Source: Bigelowiella natans CCMP2755
Taxonomy: Eukaryota; Protista; Cercozoa
Direction of reading: 5' to 3'
Assembly: GCA_000320545.1 (NCBI GenBank)
Contig: ADNK01002608.1
Coordinates: forward strand, 62,001 to 126,000
DNA: 64,000 nucleotides
The notes beneath the pieces were generated by a model. That model was not told the DNA's origin. It saw only the letters and a program-made list of their open reading frames with translations, and did no database searches. Positions 5,029 through 53,705 of this stretch are shown here, in pieces; positions within the stretch are counted from its first letter, which is position 1; the number at the start of each line of letters is the position of its first letter. Both the position numbers and the translations under genes were made by a program.

Positions 5029-5553
5029 TAGATGCAGAAGTAGTGAGATATCATTCACAAGAGTCTTCCACTCGACTGGAGAGAAGTTATTATAACTTCT
5101 AAATTGTGGTCTTGTTCATTTGTTTCGAAATAGTTTCTCTGATCAATAGCATTGTGAGTATGGGCCACCATTGTGCATATGCATTCTGTTTCACTGCTGT
5201 GTCTCATTGTGTGTGTTCACTTCTTGAGAACAAGCCAAAATTTCTGCTCGTATACGAACATTTGTAATCAGAGACATTTTAGCATGCGACATTGAACTTC
5301 TATGTAGCCGCCATGGAGGCCATGATGGCCACGGCGTGCTTGCACGCTGTGAACTAGCTAGTTAGGTGTACGTACGTTACGATACAATTACAACAGCGCT
5401 GCATGCATCGTCCACATACTAGACATAGGCCATGCATGACGAGCACGCGCGGTGCCATGATGCATGCTAGCATGATGCATGCCGCTATTGTGCTGTGACC
5501 GTACGATTGATGCATTGCTACATCATTGCCGCTATGACGATCAATCGATGCAT

Positions 5554-5608
5554 CGCTGTAGCCGCTGCATTGCATAGCTACATTAGGATGACAATTGAAA
5601 AAATTTAA
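5554..5608 (+). mobile_element. LINE 3'-end fragment
   Basis: cgctgtagccgctgcattgcatagctacattaggatgacaattgaaaaaatttaa matches 15320-15374 of the full LINE. Confidence 0.85.
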
Positions 5609-5627
5609 ACTTTATACGTATATACAT

Positions 5628-5797
5628 ATGAGACGGATGTAATGAAATATTTAAATTTTTTCAATGGTCATCCTAATGTAGCTGTGCAATGCAGCGGCTA
5701 CAGCGCTTAAATTGTATCTGTTTGTTTCCTTGGTCACATGGCGCATGCATGTGAATGCATCATGTTTTGGTCTAGCATGTCGCGCTTTGCGCGCAGC
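5628..5797 (-). mobile_element. 5'-truncated LINE copy (about 170 bp of 3' end), antisense
   Basis: Reverse complement of 6493-6662 (atgagacggatgtaatgaaatatttaa...ctttgcgcgcagc). Confidence 0.9.
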
Positions 5798-5829
5798 ATG
5801 TGTACATGTACATGTACATGTGTACATGC

Positions 5830-6660
5830 GGCAACATTACCACCACGTCATCGCACACAAGTCCAATGCGCCGCAGCATGGTTGCGCACCAATGCATATG
5901 GGTGGATAAAAATGATGGCAACGGTCACGTGGTTGAAGAAGAAGTGCTCAATTGGAGCTCCTTCGGATGCCATGTTGAAACCTTGCTAGAACACAAATGG
6001 CATGACACAACTAGATCATGGAACAGAGTGTCCTTGTACCGCCGACTCAGTTTGATCACAACCAAATTGCTTGGAGCGGAACACCCCACAACACATGCTA
6101 CAAGCAAGACACTAAAAAAGAAATTGAATGCACGTGGCAAAACGATCATGCGGAACGCTGCATCTAACTTCAAAACAAACTGGTGCAAAGAGGGAACAAA
6201 GGCCATGCCTTTGAAGAAACTTGGATTCATGCCTGGCTCTAGCACAACAGGAATCACATTGAAGCTACCTAGCATTGCCACATCATGGATGCGCGCCATG
6301 GCAACCTTGGAACTTTCTTGCTATCCAGAGGACAACGCACAGAATTGGAAGCAACATGCGACACATGCAACACATTGCAAGACATGGACCACAGCTAGAC
6401 AGAGACTCAGAATCAACAAACAACTGACGGCCATCATGGATCGCAACGATGAAACTACGCGTCTCTCAAACGCAGGAAAATTAGCTCGTGCAGCTGCGCG
6501 CAAAGCACGACATGCTAGACCAAATCACAATGCATTTTCATGCATGCAACATGTGACCAAGGAAACAAACAGATACAATTTAAGCGCTGTAGCCGCTACA
6601 TAGCACAGCTACATTAGGATGACCATTGAAAAAAATTAAATATTTCATTACATCCGTCTC

Positions 6661-6662
<2 letters not shown>
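5830..6662 (+). mobile_element. 5'-truncated, frameshifted LINE copy (related subfamily)
   Basis: Translates to TLPPRHRTQVQCAAAWLRTNA, LKLPSIATSWMRA and ETNRYNLSAVAA, homologous to the ORF2 C-terminus at 14530-15374. Ends catccgtctcat followed by (TA)n. Confidence 0.92.
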
Positions 6663-6702
<40 letters not shown>

Positions 6703-6879
6703 TACTATGTAAACTATGCATTCATCGAGCTAGATTATTTGCCTTGATAATGTGTTCAAATTTAGCATTTTATCCAAATGCGGGCTTATTGACGAACGAA
6801 GCTACTAGTGTCCATCATTTGTGCGCATGTCTGACACGCTTTTCTAACTTTCAAGTTGGGGGCCGCCTGGTAGATACGA

Positions 6880-7737
6880 CTAGCCAGTACATGATTCAGA
6901 TGCTTGGGAGAGGATAAGAGCCACGATTAGTCCGTAAAGCCCAAGGGCTTCGGCAAAGATTAGAATGAGAATTAAACCTACGAATAGATTTTCATTCTGT
7001 CCAACGGCACGTACACCGGCATCACCAACGATGCCAATGGCTATGCCAGCTGCTAGGCCACTAAGTCCACAACAGAGCCCCGCCGTCAGGTGAGCGTATC
7101 CATCATAAGCAGAATAACTATCCTTGGAAACTGAATATAAAACGCAAAGTGATAGTACACAAAAGAAATTAGTTCAAATTTCCTACATTTGTAGTACAAA
7201 ATGTTAGTATGTTATCAAACTGTTACCGCTTTGAGTAATAATCACAGCTACGATGAGGCCGTAAATTCCCAAGACCCCCGCCATAACCACAGGGATAATG
7301 TTTTTCATTACCAACTCCGGCTTCAAAGTTCCCAAGGATGCAATTCCTACCCCACTCTTAGCCGTGCCGTATGCAGCGCCGATATCTAGTAGAAGCAATT
7401 GAATTTTTGAGCACAGAACAGATGTAGAACAATGATATATTGTCTTTGTTTTTATACGATGATTGTTCAATTCGATACTATGTCTCATGAGATGTTCATT
7501 TTTCAACTCCCACTTTTCTTTATTATGTGTAGCTCAAGAAAAAGAGAAATGAATTGCTAGAAGGCTTTGGTACTAGCTCTTCTCAGCGTGGATGTAATGT
7601 TGTCGCTATTTAACCAGAAAATCAGAAAATAAAAGTTATGGTGTTTTACTCGCAAATATCATCGCGGCTGCGACTCCCCCAAAGCCAAAGAATGAGGCAG
7701 TCTTGGAGCAGGCAAACGCCAACAGTACGGGCACCAT
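6880..7737 (-). CDS. ATP6V0C: V-type H+-ATPase 16 kDa proteolipid subunit c
   Basis: Exons [29 protein letters not shown] / [14 protein letters not shown]...[21 protein letters not shown] / [17 protein letters not shown]...GDAGVRA...[20 protein letters not shown]. The proton-binding Glu is present. Confidence 0.97.
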
Positions 7738-8521
7738 TTTCTGTGGATCTGTAATTCCAGAAGATTAATCACTAGTGCAGAAACCAAAAACAGGTGCAAT
7801 TCATTCCTCTTTCGGTAAATAAGCCTTTGCTATCATGTCTTAAGTATAAAATAGAAAGAGTTATTATCTTCCTTGCTGTATACCTTAGTCTTGAAAATAT
7901 GATTTTGTCAGATCTCAGCAATAACATTCGCATTTGATATCTCTATTCTTTCACTATATACCTATTAAATTATTAAACGACAAGATGTATTTCGTGTCTT
8001 TATTATTATTACGTTCTGCTGCATGTTGGAAAGCTTCGAAATCTTGCGCAAATGTGGTAGAACTTTTCCTTCTTTGCTGAATTTAGCGATATACGACAAT
8101 CATTTTCCCTTTCATTTAAGAATAAAAAGCCCCCGTAAGCCTTTCGTTTGCACACTTTGAGTCGATTCGTTTCAAATACTGCTGATTGCCGAGCGCAAAC
8201 TTCACCCTCGTCATCATAGGCTCTAATCGGAAAAGAATATGTCGGAGGAGACAACTGCGAAAATGAGAATATTCTCCTTGTCGTCTCCAAATAATAACAA
8301 CAAACATTCTGAGAAGCTTCCTAATAATGTGTGTTTCAGGAATTATTTCCGGTTAGGAGAACATTTCAAGCTGATCTCATAGGTCGCAGATATGAATTCG
8401 AGAGATTTTACTGTATTTTTCTGTGGTTACCGATTTTCGGCACGACGACAAGGCCTTGACGTCAAGAACTCATCTCGTATCATACTCATTGCTGAAGCTG
8501 AAGGGGGGGAGGGCCAACAGT

Positions 8522-9178
8522 ATGTCGGTAAGGGCACTATTTCGCATTGATCTGTTATTTTAAAAATATTTTTTTTTTAATTCTTACCTGATGTGGGATG
8601 GGATGATAATTAATTATGGGTGGGGAATTAGAAGGGTTTGGAAGAACGAACCACATAAGAGTATGTTGGCTTTCCTTTACATTTCATCCCTTCGAGCAAA
8701 ATGATCCTGCCACGACCAATGGTCTGAATTACTAATTATAAATCGTCACATGATCTGTAGTTCCTTTACTTTATTCACTTCTGTCCTGTTCTCCAAGTTT
8801 TGCCATAAGCTCGGGATTGAAAATAATTTTTTTTTGTCGTTTTTAGATTCAGGATTATTATGCAGACCTCGATGAGTTGTTCGGAGAAATTAAAGCTGAA
8901 ACAAAGAAAGGAAAAATAGACGAACTGCTCTCTGAAGCGGATGAAATTGTACCTCATAACTCAACCGAAAATCTGCACTTATCACACATCATATTCTTCT
9001 TCGTAATGGTGAAACTTTAGGTTGGTCAGATAAAGATTGAAATAGCTTCTATCACTAATCCGAATGAAAAAAAGGAAGCATTATCAAAGACTTCATCTTA
9101 TGAGAAAAAGGTAGAAGCACCACCGTCTAAGCCTTGTTGTTAACAAACCTATTTATATTTACCGCACCGTCGTATATA

Positions 9179-9224
<46 letters not shown>

Positions 9225-9236
9225 ATACATATTCTG

Positions 9237-9302
<66 letters not shown>

Positions 9303-9893
9303 GCATCATATGTAATCGAGAGTATATAAATTTGTGGATGTATGTGTGTACCATCAGATACAAGCGTATAAGAGAAAAGCTCTACTCGGCCCTCAGGATG
9401 ATAGTGCTGATGGGGGGCAGAAGTTGTCAAGTGTAAGATCCACCAACGCTGCTCGGCAGCCACAGTGAACATGGTTGGAACGTGATTATTTTCTCCTCCC
9501 AGGTTGACAAGTCCAAGCAGGGCTTAGCAAAACTGAACGGCGCGCGGGAGATGCTAGCAGAAACAGAAGAGGTATACAAGAAAAACATTGATGGCGCTGA
9601 TAACGATCATATCTAAGAGGAGAGTGCCTCCTCCCTCCTGTCGGGTTGAGGTATTCTGGTACTAATATTTGGTTTTTATTCAAGGTTGGAACGAAGGTGT
9701 TGTCTGACTTAGCGATACAGAAAGAAGTTATCAAACGATCAACGAAAACGGTCCATACAATGGCTTTCCTCCAAATTACGAAACTTTTTAGGTGAAACAT
9801 TCTTTTTTATTGTTTCAGATGAAGGAAACAAATCAGGAGCTTTCTATGGCACAAAAATTGGCGAATAAGATGAGTAGATGGTGGCGAGCATGA
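8522..9893 (+). CDS. Vti1-like Qb-SNARE (6 exons), no C-terminal TM helix evident
   Basis: ATG TCG|gtaagg at 8522. Exons [16 protein letters not shown]..., [11 protein letters not shown]..., [10 protein letters not shown]|[19 protein letters not shown]|[24 protein letters not shown] form an Habc-like region plus a Qb SNARE motif. Missed by the ORF track. Confidence 0.8.
9178..9300. repeat. (TA)n microsatellites in intron
   Basis: Two long uninterrupted TA tracts, representative of many intronic (TA)n, (CA)n, (GA)n, (TAC)n, (GAT)n, (GAA)n and (GGA)n tracts across the window. Confidence 0.98.
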
Positions 9894-10320
9894 AATTACT
9901 TTTACATTGATGAATACAAAAAAAAGGGTTGCAAGAAAGGGAGTCAATGAAGCTCTCGCATTAATGCACTTATGCATGCGCACGCGCATGCACAAAGCCG
10001 ACTTAGACCTGTCGGCAAGGTCACAATTTGAAATAGTAGCTGCTTTTCGCATACTATCGTTTGATAGCGAAAAAAGGCCGTGCGTGCACGACTAGATGAC
10101 CGAAGATGCGTCGAGCATCGTCAAATAATCGATGCATCGCTTAATGATGCGAGCCTCGCTCTATAGATCCACCACACTAGCACAGCAAGACACAGCAGAG
10201 CACCGGACGTGCAAATTATTGTACGTTTGGATCCACACATCTATATATCTCCAAATCTATAGAGATCTAGCTAGACATGCAAGTCTGGAAATGCTGTGCG
10301 TGTGTGCTAGATTGCGTAAT

Positions 10321-10435
10321 ATGAGACGGATGTAATGAAATATTTAAATGTTTTCAATGGTCATCCTAATGTAGCTGTGCAATGTAGCGGCTACAGCGCT
10401 TAAACTGTATCTGTTTGTTTCCTTGGTCACATGTT
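10321..10435 (-). mobile_element. Left part of a short antisense LINE copy split by the full-length LINE
   Basis: Reverse complement of the LINE 3' end; continues at 15394-15463. Outer 15-bp TSD agattgcgtaatatg at 10309-10323 and 15464-15478. Confidence 0.93.
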
Positions 10436-10480
10436 ATAACGGACTCATAGCCGCGCACAAGTGAAATATTGCCCACCGTG

Positions 10481-11911
10481 ATGATCACGCGCAGCGCGCG
10501 TGGCAACAACAAGCACCAGACACCCAAAAAGGGAAGAAAGCACAAAAAGAACCAACACGCAACGTTGGATCTCGATTCAGAATGCAATGATGACGACTGT
10601 GGCTCTGATAGGAAAAGTCATGATCTGTCTCAATGCCTTCGCGAAGTTACTTCAACACTGTCTGCAACAATGGAACGCAAAGAAACTCCTCAGTGGAACA
10701 CAATGAAAAAATTGTGTGAAATGCTGACCACAATGGTCCAGTTAGTTGATGAGAAACAACAACAATTGCAGCAAGATCAAAAAGACATGCAGGAGGAAAA
10801 CGCTGGGCTTAAAAACAAATTACTGAAACTTGAAGAAGAACTGACTTATATCAAGGAACATCAGAAGAATGGCACAATGGAAGCTCAACCCTCCTCGATG
10901 CAACGGACCTCGAGAACTTACGCTAGTGTCACAACCTCATCACGCGCTGATGAACCTCATGGTCGAGATAAATATCCTGAAGCAGAAGTACAAAGACTAG
11001 CTGAGCGAAAGAATAGCCAGAGTTGGCAAGTTCCAAAAAGTCACGCCAGGAATCAAAGGAAATACAACCGGAAGTATAAACAGAACGTGCTCATATTGGA
11101 ACTTGACAAAAAAGCCATGCTGCAAGCGGGGGGCGCCATTATGGCCTCCGGCGACCCATGTCGCACTGTTCTCACTGGCAAAAAAAAACATGCCAACGAA
11201 CCAACAAGTGAGGAAACAAACACAGCAGATCCGAGGGATGAAAACCGCGACACACTGACAGAAGTTAACACCGAGGAAGAAGAGACTAAATGCCTAGCCG
11301 GAAAGAACGTAGAGGATTTGAACCCATCCAGTGAAAAAAAAGATGTTCCAGATATTGGGAAAAACCTGTCCAAAATAACTCCAAAGTTGATCGATGCACT
11401 AGGATTGAACGAATTCCAAATGCACGTAGCTTTCCAAGCGAAATATGGGAAGGACTTTCAAGGAATCCAATTCAAATCTAGGAATAAAACCCACCTAAAA
11501 GTGTTCTTCAAAGGCTCCAGAGAATCTAAGATGGATGCTTACCTGGATCTGCTTAACACCGAACATCAGTTAGGACAAGGATCATTCCTTCCCTCACTCT
11601 TTGGATTAGTGACCACAGTCAGAGCAGCTAAGTCAAGGCCAAGTAAGCACTCTGTAGTTCTGAGAGGCCCAAGGCTGGGACCTAACGAGCAGGAAAAATC
11701 AACACGAATTGGAATCATCAAGCAGATAATCGAAACCAACATCGATGTAAAAGTCGCAGCAATAGAACCTCTCGGCAAGGGCCCTCTACTTCAGCTGTTT
11801 GTGCACTCGCATGAAGAGGCCACCAAACTGCTGAATTCACAAATCACATATCAGGGCAGCTACCTACGATTCAGGGCATATGAAAACAGAAGGACACGTA
11901 AATATGGTTAA
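10481..11911 (+). CDS. LINE ORF1 (coiled coil plus probable C-terminal RRM-like fold, no CCHC knuckle seen)
   Basis: About 476 aa open frame upstream of ORF2. Coiled coil QQLQQDQKDMQEENAGLKNKLLKLEEEL; SVVLRG...EEATKLLNSQITYQGSYLRFRAY is typical of LINE ORF1 ends. Confidence 0.85.
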   Translation: MITRSARGNNKHQTPKKGRKHKKNQHATLDLDSECNDDDCGSDRKSHDLSQCLREVTSTLSATMERKETPQWNTMKKLCEMLTTMVQLVDEKQQQLQQDQKDMQEENAGLKNKLLKLEEELTYIKEHQKNGTMEAQPSSMQRTSRTYASVTTSSRADEPHGRDKYPEAEVQRLAERKNSQSWQVPKSHARNQRKYNRKYKQNVLILELDKKAMLQAGGAIMASGDPCRTVLTGKKKHANEPTSEETNTADPRDENRDTLTEVNTEEEETKCLAGKNVEDLNPSSEKKDVPDIGKNLSKITPKLIDALGLNEFQMHVAFQAKYGKDFQGIQFKSRNKTHLKVFFKGSRESKMDAYLDLLNTEHQLGQGSFLPSLFGLVTTVRAAKSRPSKHSVVLRGPRLGPNEQEKSTRIGIIKQIIETNIDVKVAAIEPLGKGPLLQLFVHSHEEATKLLNSQITYQGSYLRFRAYENRRTRKYG

Positions 11912-14900
11912 TCATTTGAATCTCCCCTACTACTACCAAAACATACGCAGTAAAAACGGAACTGAACAAGGCAGGCAAAGAATAAATAGAAGATATAATA
12001 TGTTAAAAGAAATGATAACCACCAACAACATCGAACTCGCCTGGTTTGGGGAAGGCCGCCTCAAAGAATCGGAGAGGCTGCATCCTCCAGCGGGATACGA
12101 AGTGATTCGGACGAGCGGCTCCTCTGGGAGCTTTGGATTAAGAAAAAAGAACACAGATATAATTCATATACCTATAGATGATAACAATTACGATATTAGT
12201 TTTTTCATACACAGCATTGAAAAATATGCTGTCATAATGGTGTACCTCCAGCCACACCAAAACATCTCACATCTGAAAGAGAGATTAGATTTCATAATGA
12301 ACATCATTCGGAAACAGAAATGGAAAAAATACATCATCGTGGGGGACACTAATGCTAAACACTCCACCTACGATGTCCGAAACCAAGAAGATAGACGTGG
12401 CAGATACCTACACCAGTGGTTGTCGGATAACAACATCATGATGGTCAACCCTGGGGAAGCCACATATTTCAGAAAAGGAAACACAAGCACACTTGATCAT
12501 GTGCTGTGCTCCTCAAACTTCGCACACCAAATAGAATATCAGATGGCCAACACCACGACAAGTGACCATTTCGGTATCCACTTTGGAAAACCTGTGGCAA
12601 TCCATCAACAGACTTCACCAATGATATATGACATCGACAAATTCGATGTAAAACGATTTGACGAAAAATTGAATAATATTACCGAACGCTTGCACCAGCG
12701 CATACTAAACGTTCAATCGGAGGCTGATGCAAAAAAGCTTGAACGCTGGTTCTGGGACTTTACCGGAAAAGCTTTTAATAGCTGCACACCAAAAAAACGA
12801 CAACGTTGGAGTCCAATCAAGCCATACCAAAACGACAAAAAATATAAATCCATCAAAGATCAACAAGAAAAATTATTTAGATCCTTGAAACACGAAAGGA
12901 AATTTCGGAAGAGAAAATTATTAGAAACCAAGATCCAAGAAATCAACGCCGAACTTGAACGAACCACCGAAACCCTTCAGTACGAAGCATGGCAATTATT
13001 CTTGTCTCGCTTCGAAAAATACAACAATGGGAATCATACCAGAATGCTGTACAAATTATTCCAAAAATCCAGAGGGCGGGATAAATTCGGAGGACTCGAT
13101 GGCGAAACCTCTGAAGAAAAAAAATGTGAAGTGTGTGTTGCCAAATGGAAACATATCTACAAACCACACCCGTCAGACAAGAAAAATCGAACCTTTCACG
13201 CTGAAACTGAGGCCTGGAGAAATACCTTCAGGAAAAATGAAGACAAAAAGATCCACAGTGTTAATTCATACAACAGAGATTTTTCTATGCATGAACTAAG
13301 AAACGTGATCAACAAAGCATCACCGTACAAGTCTCCTGGCGATGATGGTGTTCACCTAAACATGTTGAAAAAAAGCAAGAAACTCCATCAACTGTGGTTA
13401 GCTACATTCAACACGTCATATAGATGGGGTACCCGAGATGGCTCACGTAAGGCGGCCATTTTTTGTCTCATCCCTAAGGCCAACAAAGAACTTAACACCC
13501 CTCTCAACGGGAGAACGATTTCTCTCCTACAAATAGCTTCAAAAATAGAAGACAAACTAATAGAACAACGGCTCCGCGAAGCTATACCCCCCAAAAACAT
13601 TAGCATACATCAGTATGCATTCATGAAAAATCGATCCTGCGAAACTGCACTCACAAAGATGACGCAGTCAATCGAGGATGGAGTATATAACAAAAAGCTT
13701 GCAGCCATCCTGTTGTTTACAGATGCCTCTAAAGCTTATCCAAAAGCCTGGCATTCCGGCATGATACGCAAGTTACATGACAAATACGGAATACGAGGCT
13801 CGCTATTGCTGTGGATCGACGACTGGCTCAGAGATCGTACCGCCAGATTCAGATTTGGCAATACTCTCTCTGAGCACATGAACCTTGGGAGCGGCGTCCC
13901 CGAAGGATCATCTCTCAGCTGTTTCCTTTTCATAACCTATTACGACATTTACGAACATATTACCAACACAGATTTCCAAATATACTGTGACGACGTTACC
14001 CCCTACAAATTGTTTTCGCCAAACCGATGGGGGAAAATGCAAGATGATATCCAGGCCGACCTAAACCAAATGACGGACTGGTGCATGAAATGGCGGATGC
14101 GATTCAATGGGGACAAGAGCGGGTACCTTATAATTGACAAAAGAAATAAAGCCCACCGACACCAAACCTCCTGGAACATCTCTCTCAATCTCCAAGGAAA
14201 AATAAAAAGAGTCGACAGCGGCAGATGTCTCGGACTAATCTTCGACAACAAATTAACCTTTGAAAAACATGCTCTTGCTTCTCACCTGAGATTGCAAAAG
14301 AAGCGAAGGTTTTTGTTAAGGTTGTGTTATTCCAGACACCTTGTACCGCTAAACGTCAGACTGAAATTTTACAAATCATGGTTCCTTGCATCCAGCAGAT
14401 ACGCTGCTCCAATATGGAGATCACGAAGAAACATACGAATAAAACAGATGGATTCCATGGAATCCCAAACCCTGAAACGTATATTGGGATTACCTGGATC
14501 CATCTCCAACGACGTCCCCCACGTCCTCACTGGCACGTTGCCACCCCGATATCAAACTAAAGTGCAGTGTGCTAAATCATGGTTACGCACTAACGCATGG
14601 ATCGACACAGGCAGCGGTCCTCAAATCCATGAGGGAATAAATGATTGGAGCAGTTATGGCTTCATCATTGAAAATCGAAAAATGTTGGATGGCACATCGT
14701 GGATTGATGTGGCCACACACACGTGGAACAAAGCATCCTTGTTTCGACGGCTCAAATCGATCACTGACGACTTGTTAGGTGACGAATTGCCCACCGTTTT
14801 GGCGACAACAGAGGCGCTGAAAAAAGAACTGAAAAAACATCACAAGGTGATGAAATCTTGTGCTTTCAACGAATTCGAAGAGGAATGGTCCAATGATTCA

Positions 14901-15374
14901 TTGCGCGCTGTGCATCTCAAGAATCTTGGTTTCCTCCCGTCATCTTCGATCACCGGCATCAAACTGAAACTTCCAAGTGTTGCTACATCATGGATGCGCG
15001 CCATCTGTGGTGTCGGCAATCTTGGCAAATTCATGCTGTCACGTGGACAATGCACAGAGGAAGATGCCACGTGCGATGCATGTGGCATCCTGAAGGACAT
15101 GGATCATCTCCTGCAATGTCCAATGCATGGTCGAGAACAAATCAGATTGCGCAATCAAATGCGCGCGATCATGAATCGCAACGACGACACGAACCGGTTG
15201 ACAAAGGCTGAAATTGAATCCAGAACTGCTGCGCGCAGTGCGCGGCAACATCGGTCGCATGAGGACGCTTTCAAATGCATGAAACACATTGTGGCAGAAA
15301 CCAACAGATGCAACATTAGCGCTGTAGCCGCTGCATTGCACAGCTACATCAGGATGACCATTGAAAAAATTTGA
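11904..15374 (+). CDS. LINE ORF2: APE endonuclease, reverse transcriptase, C-terminal CCHC zinc motif
   Basis: Endonuclease motifs YQNIRS, IVGDTNAKH, TLDHVL, TSDHF; RT motifs KSPGDDG, QYAF, DASKAY, GVPEGSSLS, YCDD, CLG; zinc motif CDAC...HLLQC. ATG 11904 overlaps the ORF1 stop (ATGGTTAA). Confidence 0.96.
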   Translation: MVNHLNLPYYYQNIRSKNGTEQGRQRINRRYNMLKEMITTNNIELAWFGEGRLKESERLHPPAGYEVIRTSGSSGSFGLRKKNTDIIHIPIDDNNYDISFFIHSIEKYAVIMVYLQPHQNISHLKERLDFIMNIIRKQKWKKYIIVGDTNAKHSTYDVRNQEDRRGRYLHQWLSDNNIMMVNPGEATYFRKGNTSTLDHVLCSSNFAHQIEYQMANTTTSDHFGIHFGKPVAIHQQTSPMIYDIDKFDVKRFDEKLNNITERLHQRILNVQSEADAKKLERWFWDFTGKAFNSCTPKKRQRWSPIKPYQNDKKYKSIKDQQEKLFRSLKHERKFRKRKLLETKIQEINAELERTTETLQYEAWQLFLSRFEKYNNGNHTRMLYKLFQKSRGRDKFGGLDGETSEEKKCEVCVAKWKHIYKPHPSDKKNRTFHAETEAWRNTFRKNEDKKIHSVNSYNRDFSMHELRNVINKASPYKSPGDDGVHLNMLKKSKKLHQLWLATFNTSYRWGTRDGSRKAAIFCLIPKANKELNTPLNGRTISLLQIASKIEDKLIEQRLREAIPPKNISIHQYAFMKNRSCETALTKMTQSIEDGVYNKKLAAILLFTDASKAYPKAWHSGMIRKLHDKYGIRGSLLLWIDDWLRDRTARFRFGNTLSEHMNLGSGVPEGSSLSCFLFITYYDIYEHITNTDFQIYCDDVTPYKLFSPNRWGKMQDDIQADLNQMTDWCMKWRMRFNGDKSGYLIIDKRNKAHRHQTSWNISLNLQGKIKRVDSGRCLGLIFDNKLTFEKHALASHLRLQKKRRFLLRLCYSRHLVPLNVRLKFYKSWFLASSRYAAPIWRSRRNIRIKQMDSMESQTLKRILGLPGSISNDVPHVLTGTLPPRYQTKVQCAKSWLRTNAWIDTGSGPQIHEGINDWSSYGFIIENRKMLDGTSWIDVATHTWNKASLFRRLKSITDDLLGDELPTVLATTEALKKELKKHHKVMKSCAFNEFEEEWSNDSLRAVHLKNLGFLPSSSITGIKLKLPSVATSWMRAICGVGNLGKFMLSRGQCTEEDATCDACGILKDMDHLLQCPMHGREQIRLRNQMRAIMNRNDDTNRLTKAEIESRTAARSARQHRSHEDAFKCMKHIVAETNRCNISAVAAALHSYIRMTIEKI

Positions 15375-15393
15375 TTCTTCATCACATCCGTCT

Positions 15394-15463
15394 CATGTTG
15401 CATGCATGAAAATGCATTGTGATTTGGTCTAGCATGTCGTGCTTTGCGCGCAGCTGCATGAGC
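15394..15463 (-). mobile_element. Right part of the split antisense LINE copy
   Basis: catgttgcatgcatgaaaatgcattgtgatttggtctagcatgtcgtgctttgcgcgcagctgc is the reverse complement of 6490-6553 and is contiguous with 10321-10435. Confidence 0.93.
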
Positions 15464-15718
15464 AGATTGCGTAATATGTACGCATGCATGCTGATACAGC
15501 GTAAGCGATGCATGGTATGCTGGTACAGCTTAGCTGGGAAGTCATATATGCACGAGGCTTGAATGAGAGATATTTTAATTTATCATTGCTAGATTGGAAT
15601 ATTTTAGGTTGCTAGATGCATCATGGATTAGCTGGCGTTGGGGCAGAGATTACAGCAACTCTTTACGATTCAAATAATAGTTCATGATACAACTTAAATC
15701 CTCTAGCCCTGTTGAATC

Positions 15719-42999: not shown

Positions 43000-43030
<31 letters not shown>

Positions 43031-43288
43031 TCTCTCTCTCTCATGTATGAGCATAGCTTATCTCCGTCTATATTGGCAAGCAGATGTATTGAAAAATTGT
43101 GAATAAAATTGTTAAATTGTGGTTGGAAAACTAGGAGAGGAGTTGATGAATTAGTGGAGAAGTACGCGACAGAGGATCTAGCGAGAATGTATCATCTTCT
43201 TTCTCGTGTGGTACTACTACTACTAGTAGTAGTAGTAGTAGTAGTAGGAGTAAAAGTAGCGAGAATGTATCATCTTCTTTCTCGTGTG

Positions 43289-43320
<32 letters not shown>

Positions 43321-43375
43321 TTGTCCACCCCAACTCAATAATAATTATTATTATTATAATAATAATAGCTTAAAA

Positions 43376-43408
<33 letters not shown>

Positions 43409-43568
43409 TATGACCTTGTTGCTGTAGTGCTTAATAATATTACGAATAATACGAATAATACTGATGATGATAATGGTGATACTACTGCTACTACTACTAT
43501 TACTACTACTACTACTGCAGGATGCATTGGCATCTCTAAAGAAGTACTTCCTAGATCATCTCAAAGTC

Positions 43569-43602
<34 letters not shown>

Positions 43603-44614
43603 GTGTGCGCATGTTTCTTCATAATAATGTACCTATGAATGGGGAACAACATCAACAAAGTCAGCAACCAGAGGTTCTCCTTACTTATCCATTGGTCAAC
43701 AACGACACCAGCCGTATCTACTTGTATAAATCCTTAGATTTTTAATGCGAACAACTCCTACCATGATGACGATGATTATTATTATTCTTCTATGATTGAT
43801 TGGATCTTCATTATTATTAGGTTGCTGGAAGAAATCTTGTGATGATGGGTGATGAGTCTCAAGTACTAAAGGATAAACAGCCAGGAGAAAGACTTAATCC
43901 CCACGAAATCAAACTCCTAGAACAGGAAGAAAAGAAAGTAGTAGTAGTAGTAGCGAGTAGGTTTCACAACAATCGAAGGGAGGGGGGTGATGATGATGAT
44001 GAGGATAATAATAATAATAATAATAATGATGATGATGATGAGAATGTAACGATGCTTGCTTCTGGTGTCGCAATGCCACATGATGTAAATCATCAATCAT
44101 ATCACTCTTCCTGGGAAATTAGAATACCTTTTTATTCTATGAGAAGGGATTGTTGTTGAAATAGGAGGCGGGGGAGGAAGAATGCAATAATGACAATTTA
44201 TCACTAACTGCTCACATCATCATCACCATCATCATCATTATTTTCATCATCACCACCATCAGAAAACAGGTACTACCTACTTAGTACCTAACATCCCTCC
44301 TCTTTCCTTCTTTCCTTCTTTCCTTCTTTCCTTCCTTCCTTCCTTCCTTCCTTCCTTCCTAGGTGATTCCTGAATTGCTAATGTATAAGAAGCGATTGGA
44401 TAAACTAGTGCACGATGCTTTTGAAAATGACCAGAACTTCACGTATGCACTGAAACAAGGGTAAAGAATACACTAGTAGTAGTAGTAGTAGTAGTAGTAG
44501 TAGAACCAGCCGGAGATATCAACAAGAGGAGGAGGAAGAGGAAAGGAGGAGAAGGAGGAGGAGGGGGAGGGTGCTCCTTCGTTGCTACTGCACACACACA
44601 GCCACACACCCCAC

Positions 44615-44652
<38 letters not shown>

Positions 44653-45159
44653 TTGTTACATCTTCTTGCTTCGTTCTCAACTTCCTAGTCGTTTCTATAT
44701 TATAAGACATTATCATCATCATCATCATTATTTTGGTTTGCCTTGTTTACCTGCCTGGCAGCACCCTAATCCATTATTATTGTTCTTGGTGCTTGAATCA
44801 ATAAAACCCCAGTTTTGAATATTTCGTTGGAGGTGCAGATTACCGAGTAGCTGAGCTACTCTCAAGACATGTTGATGCACTGTTGAGAGGAGCTAAGGCA
44901 AGAACTCTCACCACGGAACCTCAAGTCAATGAGATATTCAATCCACTCCTTACGCTATTTGGATTTGTGCAATCCAAGGATGTCTTCAAAGGGTATTCAT
45001 TATTATTAGTAGTAATAGTGGCAGTAGTAATAGTAATAGTAGTAGTAGTAGTTGTAGTAGTAGTAGTTGCTGTTGTTGTTGTAGTAGTGAAGAGAAGTGC
45101 AAAGCAACGACGTACGAATTCACTGTTATTTCTCATTATCATCAGATCATCATCATCAG

Positions 45160-45192
<33 letters not shown>

Positions 45193-45721
45193 TACTGTGC
45201 TACTGTGAATCATACAACCACCATAAAATTATATCACCTTAATACCATATGAGAAAATCTCCCTCGAGACTATTTAATGTGTTTCTCTTTCCCTTCTCTC
45301 TCACGTCGTTATACTCTTACGTGGTAAAACTGCTAAATTAATATTCATTAACATTACACGTTAGATTTTATCAAAAGGAGTTAGCGACCCGGTTACTAAC
45401 AGGGAAATCAGCTTCAAGGAACGTGGAGAAGGCATGAATGAAATATGATGATGTTGGTGTTGTTGTTGATAACAATAGTACTGATATTGATAATACATAC
45501 ATCATTACTACGTTGATATGATTTTGCTACTATAATGTGATCTTCATTTCATTAAATAAGGAGAAGGGCAGTGTTCCATCATCAACCGATTATGATATCA
45601 TTGCATTGTTGTAGATAATGCTGCAAAAATTGAGGGCTTTGTGCGGTGCCGCTTTTACGAAACATATGGAGTCTATGTTTGGGTCGGTTAACAACAACAA
45701 TATATAACCATTTATATCTTA

Positions 45722-45754
<33 letters not shown>

Positions 45755-47343
45755 AATGAGGATGACGACAATACGGTCTGTAGTGGTAGTAGTAGTAGTA
45801 GTAGTAGTAGTACCAGGATTACTAGTTTATTCGTTTTCTTAAATAGGATTAATCACCTCTATATACTGCTGCTGCTACTACAACCAATCCCTTCTACTTA
45901 CTTACTTACTACCAACTACTACAACTGCTATTACTACTGCTGCTGCTACTACTACTACTACTACTACTAGTGATATATCGCTGTCTGAGGACCTAGCACG
46001 GGAGTTTCATCGGAGTGGAAGTAGTAGTAGTGTCGCCCATCAAAGTGGAACACAGTTGTCGAGTAATAAAGATCAGGATAATGATGATAATGATGATGAT
46101 GACGATGATGATGATGGTGATGGGAAGCAGAGGGAAATGAAAAAAACATCGTCGTTGCAATTATATCTTTATTTTGTTGTTAACTAGTAACATTTATTAT
46201 TTCTATCATGATAGCTTTCATTATAATATCGATTGTCATTAGATTCACAATTAATGTATTACTTTATTGTTTTTGTTGTTGCTATTATCCTACATGTTGG
46301 TCTTTCCACGTCGTCATCGTCGTCCTTCTCCCTCCCTCCCCCTTTATTCATTCCTCTTGGTTTTTCTTCTTTTTCTTCTTCTTCTTCATCTTTCCTCGTT
46401 CTTCTGTAGTTGATTTCAGTGTTCGAGTGCTGACAGAAGGATCATGGCCAAAAAGCGATGATAACGGCAGCATGCAATCCATTTCACTAAATTTACCACA
46501 GGAAATCAAAGACTCACAAGCATCTTTTGAGGCCTTCTATGCCAAACGCCACAAAAACAGAAAATTAGTGTAATAGTACTTAAATGAATTTATGAACATG
46601 AATATGAATATACTATAATTACTCGCTAATGTCTTCTTCTGACACCATAAAATAATATGTCACTTCTTTTTCTTCTTCTTCTACTTCTTCTTCTTCTTTC
46701 TTTTCATCACCATACATATACTACTATCATCCACGGATATTGGTTGCTTACACAGGTGGCAGTACCCACGATGTGAAGCGCTAATAACCGCAGAATTTCC
46801 CATATGTGGCAAGAAGGAACTCAAAGTAGTAGTAGAACTAGTAGTAGTAGTAGTAGTAGTACTAGTAGGCAATTTTTATATGTTCTTTATCATCATTATT
46901 ATGTTTTACTACTATCCTATCTATCTCGCCCTTGTATTTAGTTGTTGTTGTAACTGTCATCGGTCGTCGTAGTAGTACCATTTGTAGCAGCAGCAGCAGC
47001 AGCAGCATATGATCCATTTAATATATATATAATATCTACTATTGTGATGATGATGATGATGATGATGGGGGATTGTTGTTGTTGTTGAATGTGTGTATTT
47101 GTTGTATATGGTAGTAGTGTAGTAGTAGTAGTAGTAGTAGTAGTAGTATAGTAGTAGTTATTGTTTGTACATGATTGATTTCTTTAAGAAATACTGTGAC
47201 ACGTTCCCCCTTCATATCAACGAACAAGATTTAACAGATGATAATGATGATGATGATGATGATGATGACGATGCAGAAATACTAGTAATAGTGGTGGTTG
47301 TTGTGCTATACTTCGCGCCTTCATTGCTAATATTTTCCTCATA

Positions 47344-47385
<42 letters not shown>

Positions 47386-48137
47386 TTGCAGGTAAATGCT
47401 TTCCAGGCTGTTGTATTAGCACAAATGTCTAACAAAACAGAAGCGATGAACTTTGCTGCTCTATCATCTGCCACAGGTACTGGATATGTCGGTATTGATA
47501 GTAGTCCTGTATCCTTCATTATTCCTTTTAATGATCGATTCGTTTACTCACCAGGAAGTAGTAGTAAACTAAGTATTGGTTGCTTATATGAACGACAATT
47601 CTTCCTCTTCATCTTATGATGATGATAATGATGATGATGATTTTTACATGATGATGATGCCTAAAAGGGTTAGATAGTAAAAACCTCCAAGAATCATTGT
47701 ATAGTCTCTTGGACTCAAAAATCATCTTGAAGGTGAGTAGTAAGTAGTAGTCAAAGATTATGATGACTATGCTGATGATGATGATCAATGAAATTATTAT
47801 TGAAACGAATAACATGCTGTCAGTCGTTAAATAGCTCTTTTTCATTCAATACCATTATACAAATGTGAGAGTAGTTTGCGTAGTACCTGAGGGAGAGGAG
47901 GAGGAAAAGGAGGAGGAGGAAGTATATGAGGAACTGCACTAGTATTAGCAACAATAGCAAACAATAGTAGCATCAGAGAAATGTTGTTACTGATATCCCC
48001 ATCATTATAAGATATATTATTATTACATATTGTGTTGTGTTTGTGTGTCATCAGGCTGGTAGTCATCATCGTAAGATTCTTCCAACAGATACATTCGTTG
48101 CGAATGGGTACTACTTATTCTAGTATTTGTGCTAGTC

Positions 48138-48168
<31 letters not shown>

Positions 48169-48234
48169 ACGGCAGCAGCAGCAGCACTGTAGTAGTGGTA
48201 GCAGTAGTCGTAGTAAATATGATCATCACTAGTC

Positions 48235-48309
<75 letters not shown>

Positions 48310-49673
48310 TATCTGGTACGCACGTACGATGATAATCCTCTAAATCATCGTCATCAATGTATGATCCTTCTTCTTCCTCTAAGCGGCTTCAAAACACATC
48401 TTCGTGTGCTGAAGGTTGTACATCATTATCATCATGATCATCATCATCATGTTGTTGATTGGAGCTAGTAGTAGGGGTGCTGTTGTATCTCTAAATGATG
48501 ATCATGATGATGATGATAATGAGACTAAGCAGCAGCAGCAGTAATAGTGGGTTTATCATCGAGTACACAGTAAGTATAAATTATGAAGTGTTACTGGTGG
48601 ATGATGGTAATGATTATGATTCTTTGATGATACTATTAAATCAAGTACATTGTTATACAATCAAAATAAAATCATTCATTCGTTTGTTCCAAGCTGAATC
48701 GCGAGCGACCGAAGATTAGGAGAAGAATGGAACGAAAACAAGTTCAAGAACAGGTGATTAGTGTGTTATGTATGCTGCTGTGACATTAGTGCAGCTGCTA
48801 CTATTAATTATCAAATTACAGAGTGAGTAGTAGGCAGTGAGTAGTGAGTTTGTTTGTTATCATTAAGCTCGATGAGAACTTTGTTGGTTGTAATAACAAA
48901 CAACAAATAAGGTATTGGCGGATAGAGGCTCCGTCCTGGATGCTACTATTGTACGAATCATGAAAACCATGAAAACAATGGCACATAAGGTTGATGATGT
49001 TGCTTTTTTGCCCTAGGATCCTTGGATATTTTATTTCCCTCCTCATCGTCAATATCATCATCTTCTTCTTCATCGCTGACCGATGTGTTTTTAAAAAATG
49101 TAAATCATTTGTGGAGTGCATTTTGCGATTAGCGTACGTTTGACTTATTTTCTGCTTGTTTGGCGTTCCAACATCATCATTATCATTAGGACCTTATGGC
49201 TGATGTTGTGAAACTAATCAAGTTTACGTGCACGGTTGGTTGTTATCACTATTATCAAAAAGTATGCGTTTATAATAGTATGAGTGGAACGTTGCTGTGC
49301 TGTGATAAGACCCATTAAACCCTAATAAATAAAAAGTGCTGCCATGGCGAAAGAATCATAACCAAAAAAGTGGAATATTAGATCACCTATTCAGTTGAGA
49401 AAAACGACGACAACGACGACGACGACGACGAATCCATTACCATTGAAATGTTTGATTGATTTTAAAATCAATTTGGACTATTAATAAGAGCATATTTATT
49501 CTTATTGCTATATTAGTTACTGATTTCATTCTAAGGTTATGGTAACGATGATAATCACTAATTACCATGATAATCAGGCGCAAGATATAAAGAAGCAAAT
49601 TGATGCTTTACTTCGCAGAGAGTACATAGAAAGAGATGAAAATAATCCAGAGATATACAATTACAAAGCCTAG
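38673..49673 (+). CDS. CUL4: Cullin (cullin-4-like), about 25 exons
   Basis: SREELYR, IFLYLDRSYV, SKDVFKG|FYQKELATRLL, VRVLTEGSWP, HKNRKL|WQ, neddylation motif DATIVRIMK and REYIERDENNPEIYNYKA* (49671-49673). Start uncertain; the CUL4 assignment rests on motif resemblance. Confidence 0.9.
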
Positions 49674-50277
49674 ATGTTTTTGATTGGGGTAAAACATTGA
49701 CACGGAAAAAAGATAATCACGGACGAATTTGTAAGTAAGAAAAATAAGAAGCCATATTTCGCTCAGCGCGGGTTGGATGAATGAAAACTATGCTATCGAC
49801 CAAGGTGTTTAGATGTACATCCAACTCTAGAAAGGTTTGTTTGCACGCATGCGACTCGAACAGATATGTAGAAATTGCAGTTTGAATGTCGAGATAGATT
49901 AATCACTATCTAGCTATGCCATGCCGCCCATAAAGTACATGTACACCGCAGCTAAATTTGCAGCGCACATCCAAGGATGAACGGTGCCGTAGGTGGTTGC
50001 AAACATGATGTACACAGTCTAGCAGTGTCCAAAACGCTGGTAGATGCTGTGCAGTCTACATCTGAACATCTCTAGATCTAGACATGCACATTTTTACACG
50101 TGAAACTGCCATGGTACTGTGAATCACCATGCACCTTCTAGCGTTCTAGCGTTGCCGCGCTCACATCATGAGATGCAACTCGGCACTCTAGCACTGATGA
50201 TGATCGGTCGACTTCATCGTTCGCACATGTACATCACATTCCATCAAGCAATCTGTTCAATTGTGTCTAGCGAGTAA

Positions 50278-50337
50278 GTGGCTACAGCGGTAACTGACAT
50301 TGAATCTGTTGGTCTCCGCTACGATGTGTTTCATGCA
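50278..50337 (-). mobile_element. Degraded LINE 3' fragment
   Basis: gtggctacagcg...aatctgttggtctccgctacgatgtgtttcatgc resembles the reverse complement of 15277-15331. Confidence 0.7.
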
Positions 50338-50752
50338 GTCTAGCAGTGCGTCAACAAATGCATCTTGCTTCGCTAGCTTCGCTCATCTAGTCATGCACAC
50401 GTGTGAGGAGGTGTTAGATTTCAGATGATTTCTGTTCACATGTGCACAAACACAAACACGCATGCGCACGGCTAGACGGCATGGCTAGATCTGAGATGGC
50501 AACAAGGCCATGTTTGTTGCGAAAGAGAAAGAATTGGGATGTCTTGCATGCATGTCATGTGAGCTAGTGTACACGATGATCACTTCTCCAGTGCATCATT
50601 GATTCCAATGTGCGGGCGGCGTGCGGACATCGGATGTGATGTTTGCACCCATTATTTCTCCTCACATGTGTTATCAGAGAATGATGGCGAGTGTTTGACA
50701 TGCAACTTTCATTTTCATCCTCTCGTGTCCTAGTGTCCTCCATCTACACCGT

Positions 50753-50787
<35 letters not shown>

Positions 50788-51073
50788 CATGCATGCATGC
50801 ATATACACATGCACATGTGTATGTATATATTATATGGTATGTATATACATACACACATCATGCATGCACACGCTGTGCCCGCATTCAAGCAGTGTAGCGT
50901 GTTGCGTTGCGTGTCAAACACGTAATGCCCATTGTCTGTTGCTGACAATGGACATAACATGCATGCTACACATTCTGCATGTAGCACATGGTGTGTTCAC
51001 AGTCTACAGTGCTGGATCAAGTTAGACATTGCTGGTCAAGAGAATTAGACAGGCATTTTAGGTGCAATGCACA

Positions 51074-51576
51074 TTAATTTTCGGCTTCACTTCCGACAAC
51101 TGATGGTTTTCTCTGAAATCGGAGTTGTTTCCACGTTTTCCCAAAATACTCAACGTTCCCTATAAATAAAATAATACGTCAAAATTAGGATTAGAAATAC
51201 ACTGCTTGATGTAGTGCACAACCGCTCTTCCTGTCTTCATCAAAGAACATGCAAGTTCCTATGGAATCCAAGAATTTCCCCTCATAGATCTTCCCGTCTA
51301 GAGAGAGGGACGGCCTCAACGAGTTCAGATTCTGAAAGTTTGAAAATTAGACATTATTCTCCTTTCTCTTCATCTCCAACCTTTCACCTCAATTTTCCGA
51401 CCTATCTACGCTCTCGCATTCCTCTTTCTGTTCCAGTCATCATGCTTGACATAGTTGATTTTAACAACCTTTATACCCAATATTTTGCCGGGTTTAATTG
51501 TCAGTGCATCCAGGCAACAATCTAAATCAACTAAAACATAAGTCTCCTCATATTCAGAGTCCGAGGCTTCCTCCAT
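51074..51576 (-). CDS. GTF3C6: TFIIIC subunit 6-like protein (3 exons)
   Basis: MEEASDSEYEETYVLVDLD...ILGIK|NLNSLRPSLSLDGKIYEGKFLDSIGTCMFFDE...|NVEYFGKTWKQLRFQR fits the TFIIIC_sub6 pattern. Not in the ORF track. Confidence 0.8.
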
Positions 51577-52535
51577 CCTGAAGAGAAATTATTGTCAAAG
51601 GACATGCTGTAAGTCTTTCAAGAAAGAATTGTAATTTAGGAATGGCTAAAGGCATAAGCGTTTTCAGAACTTGGCACGGCAAACAACTTATTACGCTGGT
51701 GGGCAGGACTCTCGTGTGTTTGCCCCTTCCTTGTTTTTTGTGAGAAGCTCTCAACTTGTATTCGTGAGTGAGGAGATGGAGACAAAAGTGTAGGGGAGAA
51801 AATGTATCGCCAATCTATTATTCCGTGTCGCAGGTGCAAATTCGAGAACGAACGAACAACGAAAATAGAGTTAAAGATCCATCGGATGTTTCGTTTTCGA
51901 GAAGGGTTGATGAGGGTAATTATTATGTGTATTTGTGAAAGCCTTAGCTTCCTAAGATCAAAAATTGCGAGCGCGGTCCTCGTGGAGGTCCGGTCGCGGG
52001 TATTGGACATAGTTTTCAATTAGCACAGAAACCGATTCAGCAAAGCTTCATAATCTGGTTTATGCCTCCTGAGCAAGGACAAATATTGGAACAAGCGACT
52101 CATGTGGGACATTGAGATAGATCTCATTGCCATGAGACTTCCAGGCCTTTGAAATTTTTTCCAAATGTAAAATGGCTCATTTTGGTTGCAGCAGATGTGT
52201 TTTGGCCTGTAGTTTTCCTTTTCATCGATTTCAATTTTTGTCCTTTTCGTCTGTGTTTTCACGAAGCGACAACATCATCTTGGCGTCCTGTCTAGTCGTA
52301 GTGCATTTTCACATGCGCGTTGAGCGAAATCAAGAGCATGATCATCATTTCATGGTCAGGTCCGAAGCAAGAATGCATCGGACCAGCAGGATCGAATCGA
52401 TGAGAGTCTGGGTGAATCACAGACACAGCACAGCAATGTGATGTGTGCACAATGTGCACATCATGCTGCATGTCCATCATGTGAAAGTGGGCACAGACGG
52501 TCGGGCCCACCTAGCTAGCTAGCTAGCTAGCCACG

Positions 52536-53340
52536 ATTGGTGAAACTTTCCAGCTGTTTGTTGATCGACCACACCTCCAAAGAGTTGCACGAGCGTGACC
52601 ACCATTTTCAGTCTCAACAAGCAAGCTGCATGCTCACATGGTTTGGTGGTGCTGCCAGTCGACACCAGCTAGTTTTGACCATCAACACCAACAGGGCTAG
52701 AGGGTGCTGACTGCACGTGCTGACAAGTCCTCGCAATGATTTTTGTTTGCAGGTGCGGCTTCGTGCAAATGCACGTCTCCCACGTGGTTCTTGCGCACGT
52801 TGATTTTTGCACCAACCCAGCTCCAGAGCTAGCCAGCAATGCTCAGTTCAATGTTCAACCTTCAGTGTTCTTTGTCTTTCTTTCTTTCTTTCAAACAAGC
52901 AACATTCCACTTGCACACGCTCGTGCACACAGAGCCTTCATGGCTACATGGCGTACGCACACATGCGAACATGTGTTGCGCGGCATTTTTTGTGTCATGT
53001 GTTGTGAACACAGACATGACACCAAAAAGGACCCACACACGCAGTGGACAACATGTGTGCTGATGGGCTGTGCGCCATGGAGCCTTCTAGCCTTTGTGGC
53101 TACACATGATAAAATCCGTGGCACGAAAAGTTCTGACATGGCAGGTGTTCTTGTGACCTGGCTACTGGTGGTCTAGCTAGCTGGTGGTGTTGAAATCGGG
53201 GTGGCTATGGAAACCCCGCCTAGCACGTCACAGCTAGTGCGTGCGGACAAACACAACACTACGCTGCAGAGACGTGTGACATGGCGCATTGGTGGCACAC
53301 TAGCAGCTCGCGCGCATGCAAGCATGACTAGATGATGGCG
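52536..53340 (+). pseudogene. Possible hypermutated ERD2/KDEL-receptor-like relic
   Basis: Collinear fragments IGETFQLF, KSC...SLNKQ, QVLAMIFVCRC, IFCVMCCEHRHDTKKD, APWSLLAFV, GVLVTW, VEIGVAM..SQL resemble ERD2 once His/Cys/Met are reverted to Tyr/Ile. Frameshifts and stops present. Confidence 0.3.
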
Positions 53341-53379
53341 GGGTCTACTCACTGCAAGCATGTTGAACATCACTAAACC

Positions 53380-53558
53380 ATTGCTATGTGATGCATGTCA
53401 TATGTACGGCGAACAACAACCTGCTCTAAATGAAGGATTAGGACTTGTTTTCAAATACAGCTTAACAATTGCTATGTGATGCATGATGCATGTTGTATGT
53501 ACCGAGCCTATGCGAACAACCTGCTCTAAATGAAGGATTGGGACTTACTGTGAAATAC
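53380..53558. repeat. Imperfect tandem duplication (about 80-90 bp x2)
   Basis: attgctatgtgatgcatg...aacaacctgctctaaatgaaggatt(a/g)ggactt...aaatac occurs twice. Confidence 0.9.
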
Positions 53559-53705
53559 TGGTACTGTTATCCAAATTTTTCGTCAAAGCAAAGTATTCGC
53601 TTTGCTTAATAGATGCTGGATAATTGAGTCACTGTACATTGCAAATAATCACACCGAACACAAAAATTAGCTTTCACATGCGACTGATTGTGGTCATACT
53701 GATGA

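Follow-up and report, generated by a model that had tools for sequence, protein, structure and literature searches.

Repeat-induced point mutation (RIP), known from Neurospora and other ascomycetes, makes TpA from CpA and acts on duplicated, near-identical DNA, before meiosis and with the methyltransferase RID. A different mutator has been described in the cercozoan Bigelowiella natans: according to the main text of a preprint on mutation-accumulation lines (bioRxiv 10.64898/2026.01.13.699255), the mutation rate of two endogenous viral regions is about 1000 times higher, and their mutations are almost only TpA to TpG or CpA, on both strands and in some lines only. The larger hypermutable region, from a nucleocytoplasmic large DNA virus (NCLDV), is single-copy and silent. 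The same text reports a genome scan with 124 clusters, each made up of three or more extreme 1-kb windows in a row, an enrichment of reverse transcriptase (RT), endonuclease and DDE domains among TpA-poor coding sequences (CDS), and a homologue of ADAT2 as the candidate enzyme; it leaves open how the mutator chooses its targets and how far it reaches beyond the two viral inserts. Here, we describe a stretch of 64,000 nucleotides from B. natans CCMP2755 (contig ADNK01002608.1 of assembly GCA_000320545.1, positions 62,001 to 126,000, forward strand; hereafter the window, in whose own numbering all positions are given), in which short TpA-poor islands lie between housekeeping genes. These islands are probably a scar that the TpA to TpG/CpA hypermutation of B. 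natans has built up over time on DNA that is neither genic nor promoter, between the 3' end of one gene and the next gene.

The window, which is rich in introns and microsatellites, was segmented as a whole with a second-order Markov model and the Viterbi algorithm, which returned exactly eight TA-poor segments of 0.8–1.4 kb, together 9,146 bp or 14% of the window. All eight match islands that an earlier, sequence-only reading of this DNA had pointed out. Convergent gaps hold I1 (5282–6628), which contains three 3' fragments of a long interspersed nuclear element (LINE) of subfamily B; I4 (34025–35025), which is single-copy and without a recognizable transposable element (TE); and I6 (49759–51074), with a degenerate LINE tail at 50277–50337 and a mixed TA/CA/TG array at 50752–50870. 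Tandem gaps hold I3 (19127–20520), the CTAG-richest island, with a degenerate LINE tail at about 19780–19930; I5 (37107–38209), which is single-copy and has minus-strand RNA reads within it; and I7 (52092–53401), again without a recognizable TE. The two remaining segments lie at the ends of an intact LINE of subfamily A: I2a (9974–10791) is made up of unique DNA (9974–10318), an inverted LINE-B tail (10319–10435) and the LINE-A 5' end (10436–10791), and I2b (14658–15514) of the TpA-depleted coding 3' end of LINE-A and the remainder of the split LINE-B tail (15390–15463). Each island was recovered when it was omitted from the training set (eight or nine segments per run, the ninth in the run that left out I2a), and a model trained solely on I4, I5 and I7 recovered every other island. 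No Pfam match was found for the open frames of I3, I5 and I7. An imperfect tandem duplication of about 90 bp (53373–53558) sits at the right edge of I7.

Islands are present in 7/7 convergent or tandem gaps and in none of the three divergent gaps D1 (7737–8522), D2 (24460–24934) and D3 (35512–35908) (Fisher p = 0.008, from a sample of one window and ten gaps), just as the sequence-only reading had it. Its claim that introns are free of islands also stood: across the window, no segment fell within introns, divergent gaps, the body of the LINE or a Gypsy element. Its description of the islands as intergenic holds for most of them, but not for 14658–15394, the coding 3' end of the intact LINE open reading frame (ORF) 2, nor for 10436–10791, the LINE 5' end. 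Nor is "downstream of a gene" the full description: the islands in the three tandem gaps also lie directly upstream of one, with 407, 471 and 516 bp left between the island and the ATG of that gene. The gene strands are consistent with stranded RNA reads (about 6% of run X23), Pfam and tblastn matches agree for four genes, and the two doubtful small genes that flank gaps are expressed.

In the islands, loss of TpA is coupled to a gain of CpA and TpG. The plain TpA observed/expected (obs/exp) ratio of I1, I2a, I3, I4 and I6 is 0.62–0.76, the same as in the divergent gaps (0.62–0.76), and the earlier label "TA-depleted" therefore fails as a separator for these islands. What does separate them is the CpA/TpG excess, with obs/exp of 1.43–1.83 in islands, 0.83–1.06 in divergent gaps and a maximum of 1.46 among 82 host windows. 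Islands are further distinguished by a GC content of 46–50%, CC/GG of about 0.6 and an excess of CTAG and CATG.

The loss depends on the preceding base. Relative to host DNA, the T/C ratio before A in non-LINE island DNA is lowered by 2.3 (after A), 2.2 (after G) and 2.5 (after T) log2 units, an approximately 5-fold shift from ATA/GTA/TTA to ACA/GCA/TCA, but after C the change is only −0.07 log2; 11 of the 12 contexts without a following A are within 0.45 log2 of host DNA. The DTA/DCA counts (D, any base but C) were 251/1094 in non-LINE island DNA versus 2902/2486 in three host genes. Four-mers in the islands ranked from DTAH (0.09–0.34; H, any base but G) through DTAG and CTAH (0.43–0.79) to CTAG (3.2). 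Each of seven old island segments showed the D-versus-C contrast (p 0.01 to 6e-19), as did the flanks of the two metagenome loci, L001 and L002. The LINE ends and a second TA-poor repeat of L001 showed it weakly or not at all, and 2/3 host genes had a milder contrast of the same sign. (At L001:2740–3930 there is a different TA-poor element with inverted repeats, a TA-normal interruption of about 300 bp and no CTAG excess.)

The earlier reading had seen long (TA)n tracts in introns and divergent gaps; 11 nearly pure arrays lie outside and none inside the segmented islands, two of them directly abutting I1. Mixed TA/CA/TG arrays numbered three inside the 9 kb of islands and two in the 55 kb outside, a distribution that is suggestive only. 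The in-register runs at 5797–5828 (16 units, all TA, CA or TG; 4/5/7) and at 50752–50870 are likely to be converted (TA)n tracts.

LINE remnants were found in four of the seven gaps, including a nested insertion, and none in I4, I5 or I7. The intact element is a non-LTR retrotransposon of subfamily A (10436–15394, plus strand), with ORF1 at 10451–11911 upstream of ORF2 at 11835–15374, which encodes an APE endonuclease and an RT (PF14529, PF00078). It sits within an inverted LINE-B tail, flanked by a target duplication of 6 bp. Other hallmarks of non-LTR elements are the (TA)n tail behind the copy in I1 and a sequencing depth that rises steeply toward the 3' end. Terminal inverted repeats belonging to the element itself were considered and rejected, and with them DIRS- or Penelope-like ends: the 5' arm is the subfamily-B tail split by the insertion, which resumes past the 3' end of the element. 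The three fragments in I1 are a short LINE 3' tail (5554–5609, plus strand), arranged tail-to-tail with an inverted LINE-B 3' fragment (5619–5797, minus strand; 95% identical to L002), and a 5'-truncated, dead LINE-B copy (5826–6660, plus strand; 82% identical to L002), with a pure (TA)n tail behind it. Long LINE contigs had depths of about 940–990 versus 42–58 for unique flanks (a summed depth rather than a true copy number), and copies of the body showed 0–1 differences on contigs of 0.6–1.5 kb, which suggests about 20 near-identical copies of LINE-A. Two JGI Bigna1 gene models match the ORF2 tail at 92% and 99% identity, and four homologs were found. One distant relative of ORF2, P0002 (43%), has about 160 extra residues, distributed over several blocks that precede the C-terminal Cys motif; they are absent from both B. 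natans subfamilies, have no Pfam match and look RNase H-like.

Within the LINE, the loss is concentrated at the ends. Counts of synonymous T|A versus C|A junctions were 57/120 in the body and 2/42 in the tail (p = 9e-5), and Leu/Val codons of the form xTA versus xTG were 28/33 in the body and 2/19 in the tail (p = 0.003). Depletion of both synonymous classes in the tail indicates that the loss is mutational and that both strands were hit. The LINE of the window is depleted over its 5' 350 bp as well (9/56 vs. 305/383, p = 6e-7), at the copy number of the body. The body itself is mildly depleted (odds ratio 0.55 against its own control). In L002, a locus of a separate marine assembly, the tail of subfamily B is depleted in the same way across about 1.1 kb. 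A Tyr codon of P0001 reads His in L002 and Cys in the copy of the window. The variant totals in X1, which are unpolarized, lean to A>G/T>C (331, vs. 189 C>T/G>A). A young Ty3/Gypsy element with one open frame of 1460 aa (gag–protease–RT–RNase H–integrase region; 59620–64000, minus strand) is not depleted: its synonymous junction counts are 130/167, its odds ratio 1.33 and its TpA obs/exp 1.08. Its protein is 95–99% identical to two JGI Bigna1 models, which, with the ORF2 matches, points to B. natans or a very close relative. (AATT is strikingly rare in the Gypsy element, at 0.15.)

Whether the loss of TA in the islands was made in place or inherited received a mixed answer. In P0003, a dead copy of the A tail, 3/10 TA-type sites were changed compared to 3/242 other A>G sites (p = 0.0009), and this copy, together with the synonymous classes of the tail, shows the T:A to C:G change on both strands. 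No TA-type change was seen in 11 database models of the Gypsy element, nine of which may overlap the window locus. When the islands were compared in pairs, all matches outside the LINE tails were compositional, and I4, I5 and I7 had no match beyond composition.

Exclusion of islands from transcription units and core promoters fits the orientation rule. Islands begin 27–370 bp past stop codons (the ends are approximate, since several gene ends were read from translations), and I6 begins 35–190 bp after the end of the cullin RNA at 49724. In total length, the divergent gaps come to 785, 474 and 396 bp; two of them (474 and 396 bp) are no longer than one promoter-side margin of a tandem-gap island, so that the absence of islands there requires no sensing of orientation. 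Yeasts offer a comparison (PMC3128071): as in the window, a gap that contains a promoter does not fall below a certain length, which is similar whether the promoter works one way or both. However, convergent gaps are the shortest in yeasts, whereas here they span 1.3–1.8 kb (5.8 kb including the LINE) and divergent gaps 0.4–0.8 kb, a reversal that is due to the islands.

The excess of CTAG, about 3-fold, is a separate feature of the islands. Tandem (CTAG)n accounts for 23 of the 88 CTAG, and obs/exp is still 2.9 once these are collapsed. CTAG density is about 9–21 per kb in non-LINE island DNA versus 1–2 per kb in the master LINE tails. We ran coarse simulation searches (14–22 random draws per model, starting from host or TE DNA of the window). 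Conversion of TA alone yielded CpA of about 1.6, a rise in GC and part of the loss of CC, with CTAG at most 0.4; when CCAG to CTAG or TAA to TAG was added, CTAG reached 1.4–2.7, and the two could not be distinguished. Absolute sparing of TAG was rejected as the cause, since simulated CTAG did not exceed 0.8 and, of the three TA-type changes in P0003, one is at TAG. Additional CC to CT, CWG or AA to AG changes did not reach the observed profile either, and in dead copies the frequency of CAG to TAG (4/27 vs. 24/355) is based on too few sites. The motifs of viral methyltransferases, as listed in the accessible text of PMC13196603, include neither CTAG nor CATG. TadA/ADAT and ADAR enzymes resemble the island process in their preference for an A after U or T and in the A to G outcome; however, engineered TadA8.20 edits UAG well on RNA (PMC12027372), whereas the islands retain TAG and CTA, and CTAG most of all. 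The CTAG excess is thus not a known deaminase preference. Our guess is that another process lies behind it, for instance modification of cytosine at CCAG/CTGG; the excess either newly constrains what the enzyme can be or points to a further DNA modification.

Several results weigh against reading the islands as the scar of this mutator. The preprint, in its main text, reports no hot spot beyond the two viral regions and an AT-biased spectrum elsewhere (bioRxiv 10.64898/2026.01.13.699255), although mutations in unique islands should probably have been callable in its lines. In three dead LINE-B fragments in I1 and I2, none of the 32 TA strand-sites at which the outgroup concurs had changed, which indicates that their low TpA was inherited, not made in place; and I4, I5 and I7 have no ancestor against which changes could be polarized. 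The most depleted stretch is the LINE tail with the highest copy number, as homology would have it, and the synonymous-only test at the LINE 5' end is weak (p = 0.09). Nor are the islands uniformly silent: minus-strand RNA covers 37502–38168 in I5 at a depth of 1.9, and reads from both strands fall on the LINE tails. Finally, no simulation matched CTAG of about 3 together with CATG of about 5 (best CTAG 2.7, maximum CATG 3.0). The mixture of changed P0003 sites, unchanged LINE-B fragments and unchanged Gypsy models fits a patchy, episodic action, and it fits the absence of further hot spots in the preprint's main text.

The islands might instead be pure transposon graveyards, in which the mutator strikes DNA of mobile or foreign origin, either through homology or when it invades, and leaves the ends of master copies TA-poor; the islands would then be heaps of such copies, decayed past recognition, and their orientation would reflect only where insertions survive. 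The remnants in four gaps, the nested insertion with its target duplication, the strength of depletion in the highest-copy tail, the unchanged dead LINE-B fragments and the TE domains among TpA-poor CDS in the preprint's main text (bioRxiv 10.64898/2026.01.13.699255) all speak for this. However, about 6.7 kb of island DNA have no detectable LINE and no inter-island match beyond composition, and I4 and I5 share one unbroken, single-copy contig of 5.7 kb in the DNA runs (33639–39251, depth about 55). The CTAG-rich composition of the non-LINE islands is not simply inherited from the CTAG-poor master tails, the LINE 5' end is depleted at the copy number of the body, and the Gypsy element is spared. 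We consider this explanation unlikely. With respect to homology as the trigger, single-copy islands together with a spared LINE body of about 20 copies and a spared multi-copy Gypsy element disfavor a simple RIP-like mechanism; the sequence-only reading had leaned away from homology and is upheld to that extent, but it had overlooked the LINE pieces in four of the seven gaps. RIP resembles the present case in making dinucleotide-specific transitions that scar mobile DNA and in producing two compositional compartments. It differs in its direction, as C to T at CpA with enrichment of TpA is not what is found here, and in its duplication trigger, since duplicated LINE body and Gypsy DNA were spared and single-copy DNA was scarred, although episodic timing could hide such a trigger.

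Alternatively, the mutator could be guided by RNA, with read-through beyond the 3' ends of genes, and antisense transcription over inverted LINE tails, giving double-stranded RNA and the islands marking DNA that is transcribed through. The short distances between stop codons and island starts, the both-strand RNA on LINE tails, the RNA within I5 and the tail-to-tail and head-to-head fragments in I1 are all in line with this, as is antisense RNA at a depth of 10–21 over 10240–11307 (the LINE 5' end and start of ORF1), which drops to near zero across the remaining, spared body. On the other hand, tail reads may derive from any of very many copies, I4 and most of I3 and I6 are nearly read-free in the sampled portion of the run, and the NCLDV region is silent according to the preprint's main text (bioRxiv 10.64898/2026.01.13.699255), all of which makes RNA guidance improbable. 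The description of the islands as untranscribed in the sequence-only reading is accordingly contradicted in part: reads are few in I3, I4 and I6, but RNA is present in I5 and on the LINE ends. The RNA in I5 may stem from antisense transcription that starts at the promoter of the cullin gene, in which case the gap would be functionally divergent.

Ordinary decay of methylated cytosine (CpG to TpG/CpA) or a compositional artifact of microsatellites is very remote as the main cause, although such decay could still account for the CTAG component if islands carry 5mC at CCAG/CTGG: the CpA/TpG excess and a loss of CCGG (0.13–0.17) are products of such decay too, but island CpG obs/exp is 0.8 and not below the host value of 0.74, a CpG-only simulation gave TpA 1.0, CpG 0.14 and 30% GC versus the observed 0.6, 0.8 and 49%, microsatellites had been masked, and the direction measured in B. 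natans is the opposite one in the preprint's main text (bioRxiv 10.64898/2026.01.13.699255).

Returning to the scar of hypermutation, we infer that the mutator would act in episodes between the 3' end of a gene and the next gene, where fragments of LINEs pile up, and that the process seen in the viral regions probably made the islands too. It would be aimed by a silent-chromatin or RNA-marked domain and not by duplication alone, and such a domain would reach 0.35–1.1 kb into inserted elements. Genes and some 400–500 bp of promoter would be excluded, which would leave short bidirectional promoters without room for an island, and a second, slower process would produce the CTAG excess. Putative targeting through chromatin is plausible. 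An extension of this view to the genome, in which an intergenic mutator compartment, marked by chromatin or RNA, runs from every gene 3' end to the next promoter, converts TpA adenines independently of homology, rewrites LINEs from both ends over about 0.35–1.1 kb and is accompanied by a CTAG-building process, is offered tentatively and may well not hold; if true, the compartment would determine genome architecture as a mirror image of RIP that does not depend on homology.

Compared to the hypermutation of the viral regions, as set out in the main text of the preprint, the islands share the dinucleotide, the direction and the action on both strands; TE domains are enriched among TpA-poor sequences there, and LINE remnants lie in four of the seven gaps here. 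They differ in scale, with a 0.8–1.4 kb intergenic footprint instead of two large viral inserts under ongoing mutation, and the preprint's main text does not describe an end-restricted depletion of a live LINE. The window falls short of the preprint's cut-offs, as given there, both of which are passed in 1 of 64 windows. This suggests that the mutator has touched about 14% of this ordinary gene-rich DNA, at a scale missed by a 1-kb cluster rule. The preprint's main text contains neither "CTAG" nor "intron" and does not treat gene orientation (bioRxiv 10.64898/2026.01.13.699255); in the literature on Bigelowiella methylation and retrotransposons, on TpA/CTAG and on RIP-like mutation, the preprint's supplements excluded, no description of such islands was found, and scans of viral contigs found nothing. 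Thus, a TpA mutator in B. natans is known, and the literature searched held no published account of the intergenic extent, the end-restricted rewriting of a live LINE or the CTAG signature. The built-in controls (LINE ends versus middle, Gypsy, unique islands) make the choice between homology, chromatin and RNA directly testable in genome and polymorphism data that already exist. There is also a practical side, as loss of TA removes stop codons and LINE tails have been fused into host gene models (P0003, P0004). P0003, P0004, P0134 and P0135 are JGI models that fuse host genes (a kinesin and others) to LINE or Gypsy pieces, and these fusions are likely to be annotation artifacts.

The genes that flank the gaps include g3 (8522–9893, plus strand), supported by its translation and RNA and presumably a Vti1-like SNARE; g4 (15717–18720, minus strand; ends approximate), likewise supported by translation and RNA; and g5 (20886–24460, minus strand), which encodes the CCR4–NOT subunit NOT3, its closest named relative being from Amorphochlora. 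They are followed by g6 (24934–33998, plus strand; sequence and RNA), which we take to be an IQCA1-like AAA ATPase; g7 (35297–35512, minus strand), a small membrane protein with a DUF4730 domain (Pfam and RNA); g8 (35908–36887, plus strand; translation and RNA), with a C-terminal RING motif visible in the translation; and g9 (38680–49673, plus strand), the cullin (Pfam and RNA). The last, g10 (51100–51576, minus strand; 3' end approximate), is expressed and has no Pfam match; we assume that it is TFIIIC subunit-6-like. Minus-strand RNA at 51600–52070, upstream of the g10 ATG and extending nearly to the edge of I7, represents either a long 5' untranslated region or a further small gene. Finally, g2 (6880–7737, minus strand; PF00137, translation and RNA) encodes the V-ATPase proteolipid subunit c. 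In an exon of this gene, most RNA reads differ from the DNA at 7018 (G>A), 7033 (G>C) and 7042 (T>C), with 80% likeness, and these reads probably come from a paralogue or another strain.

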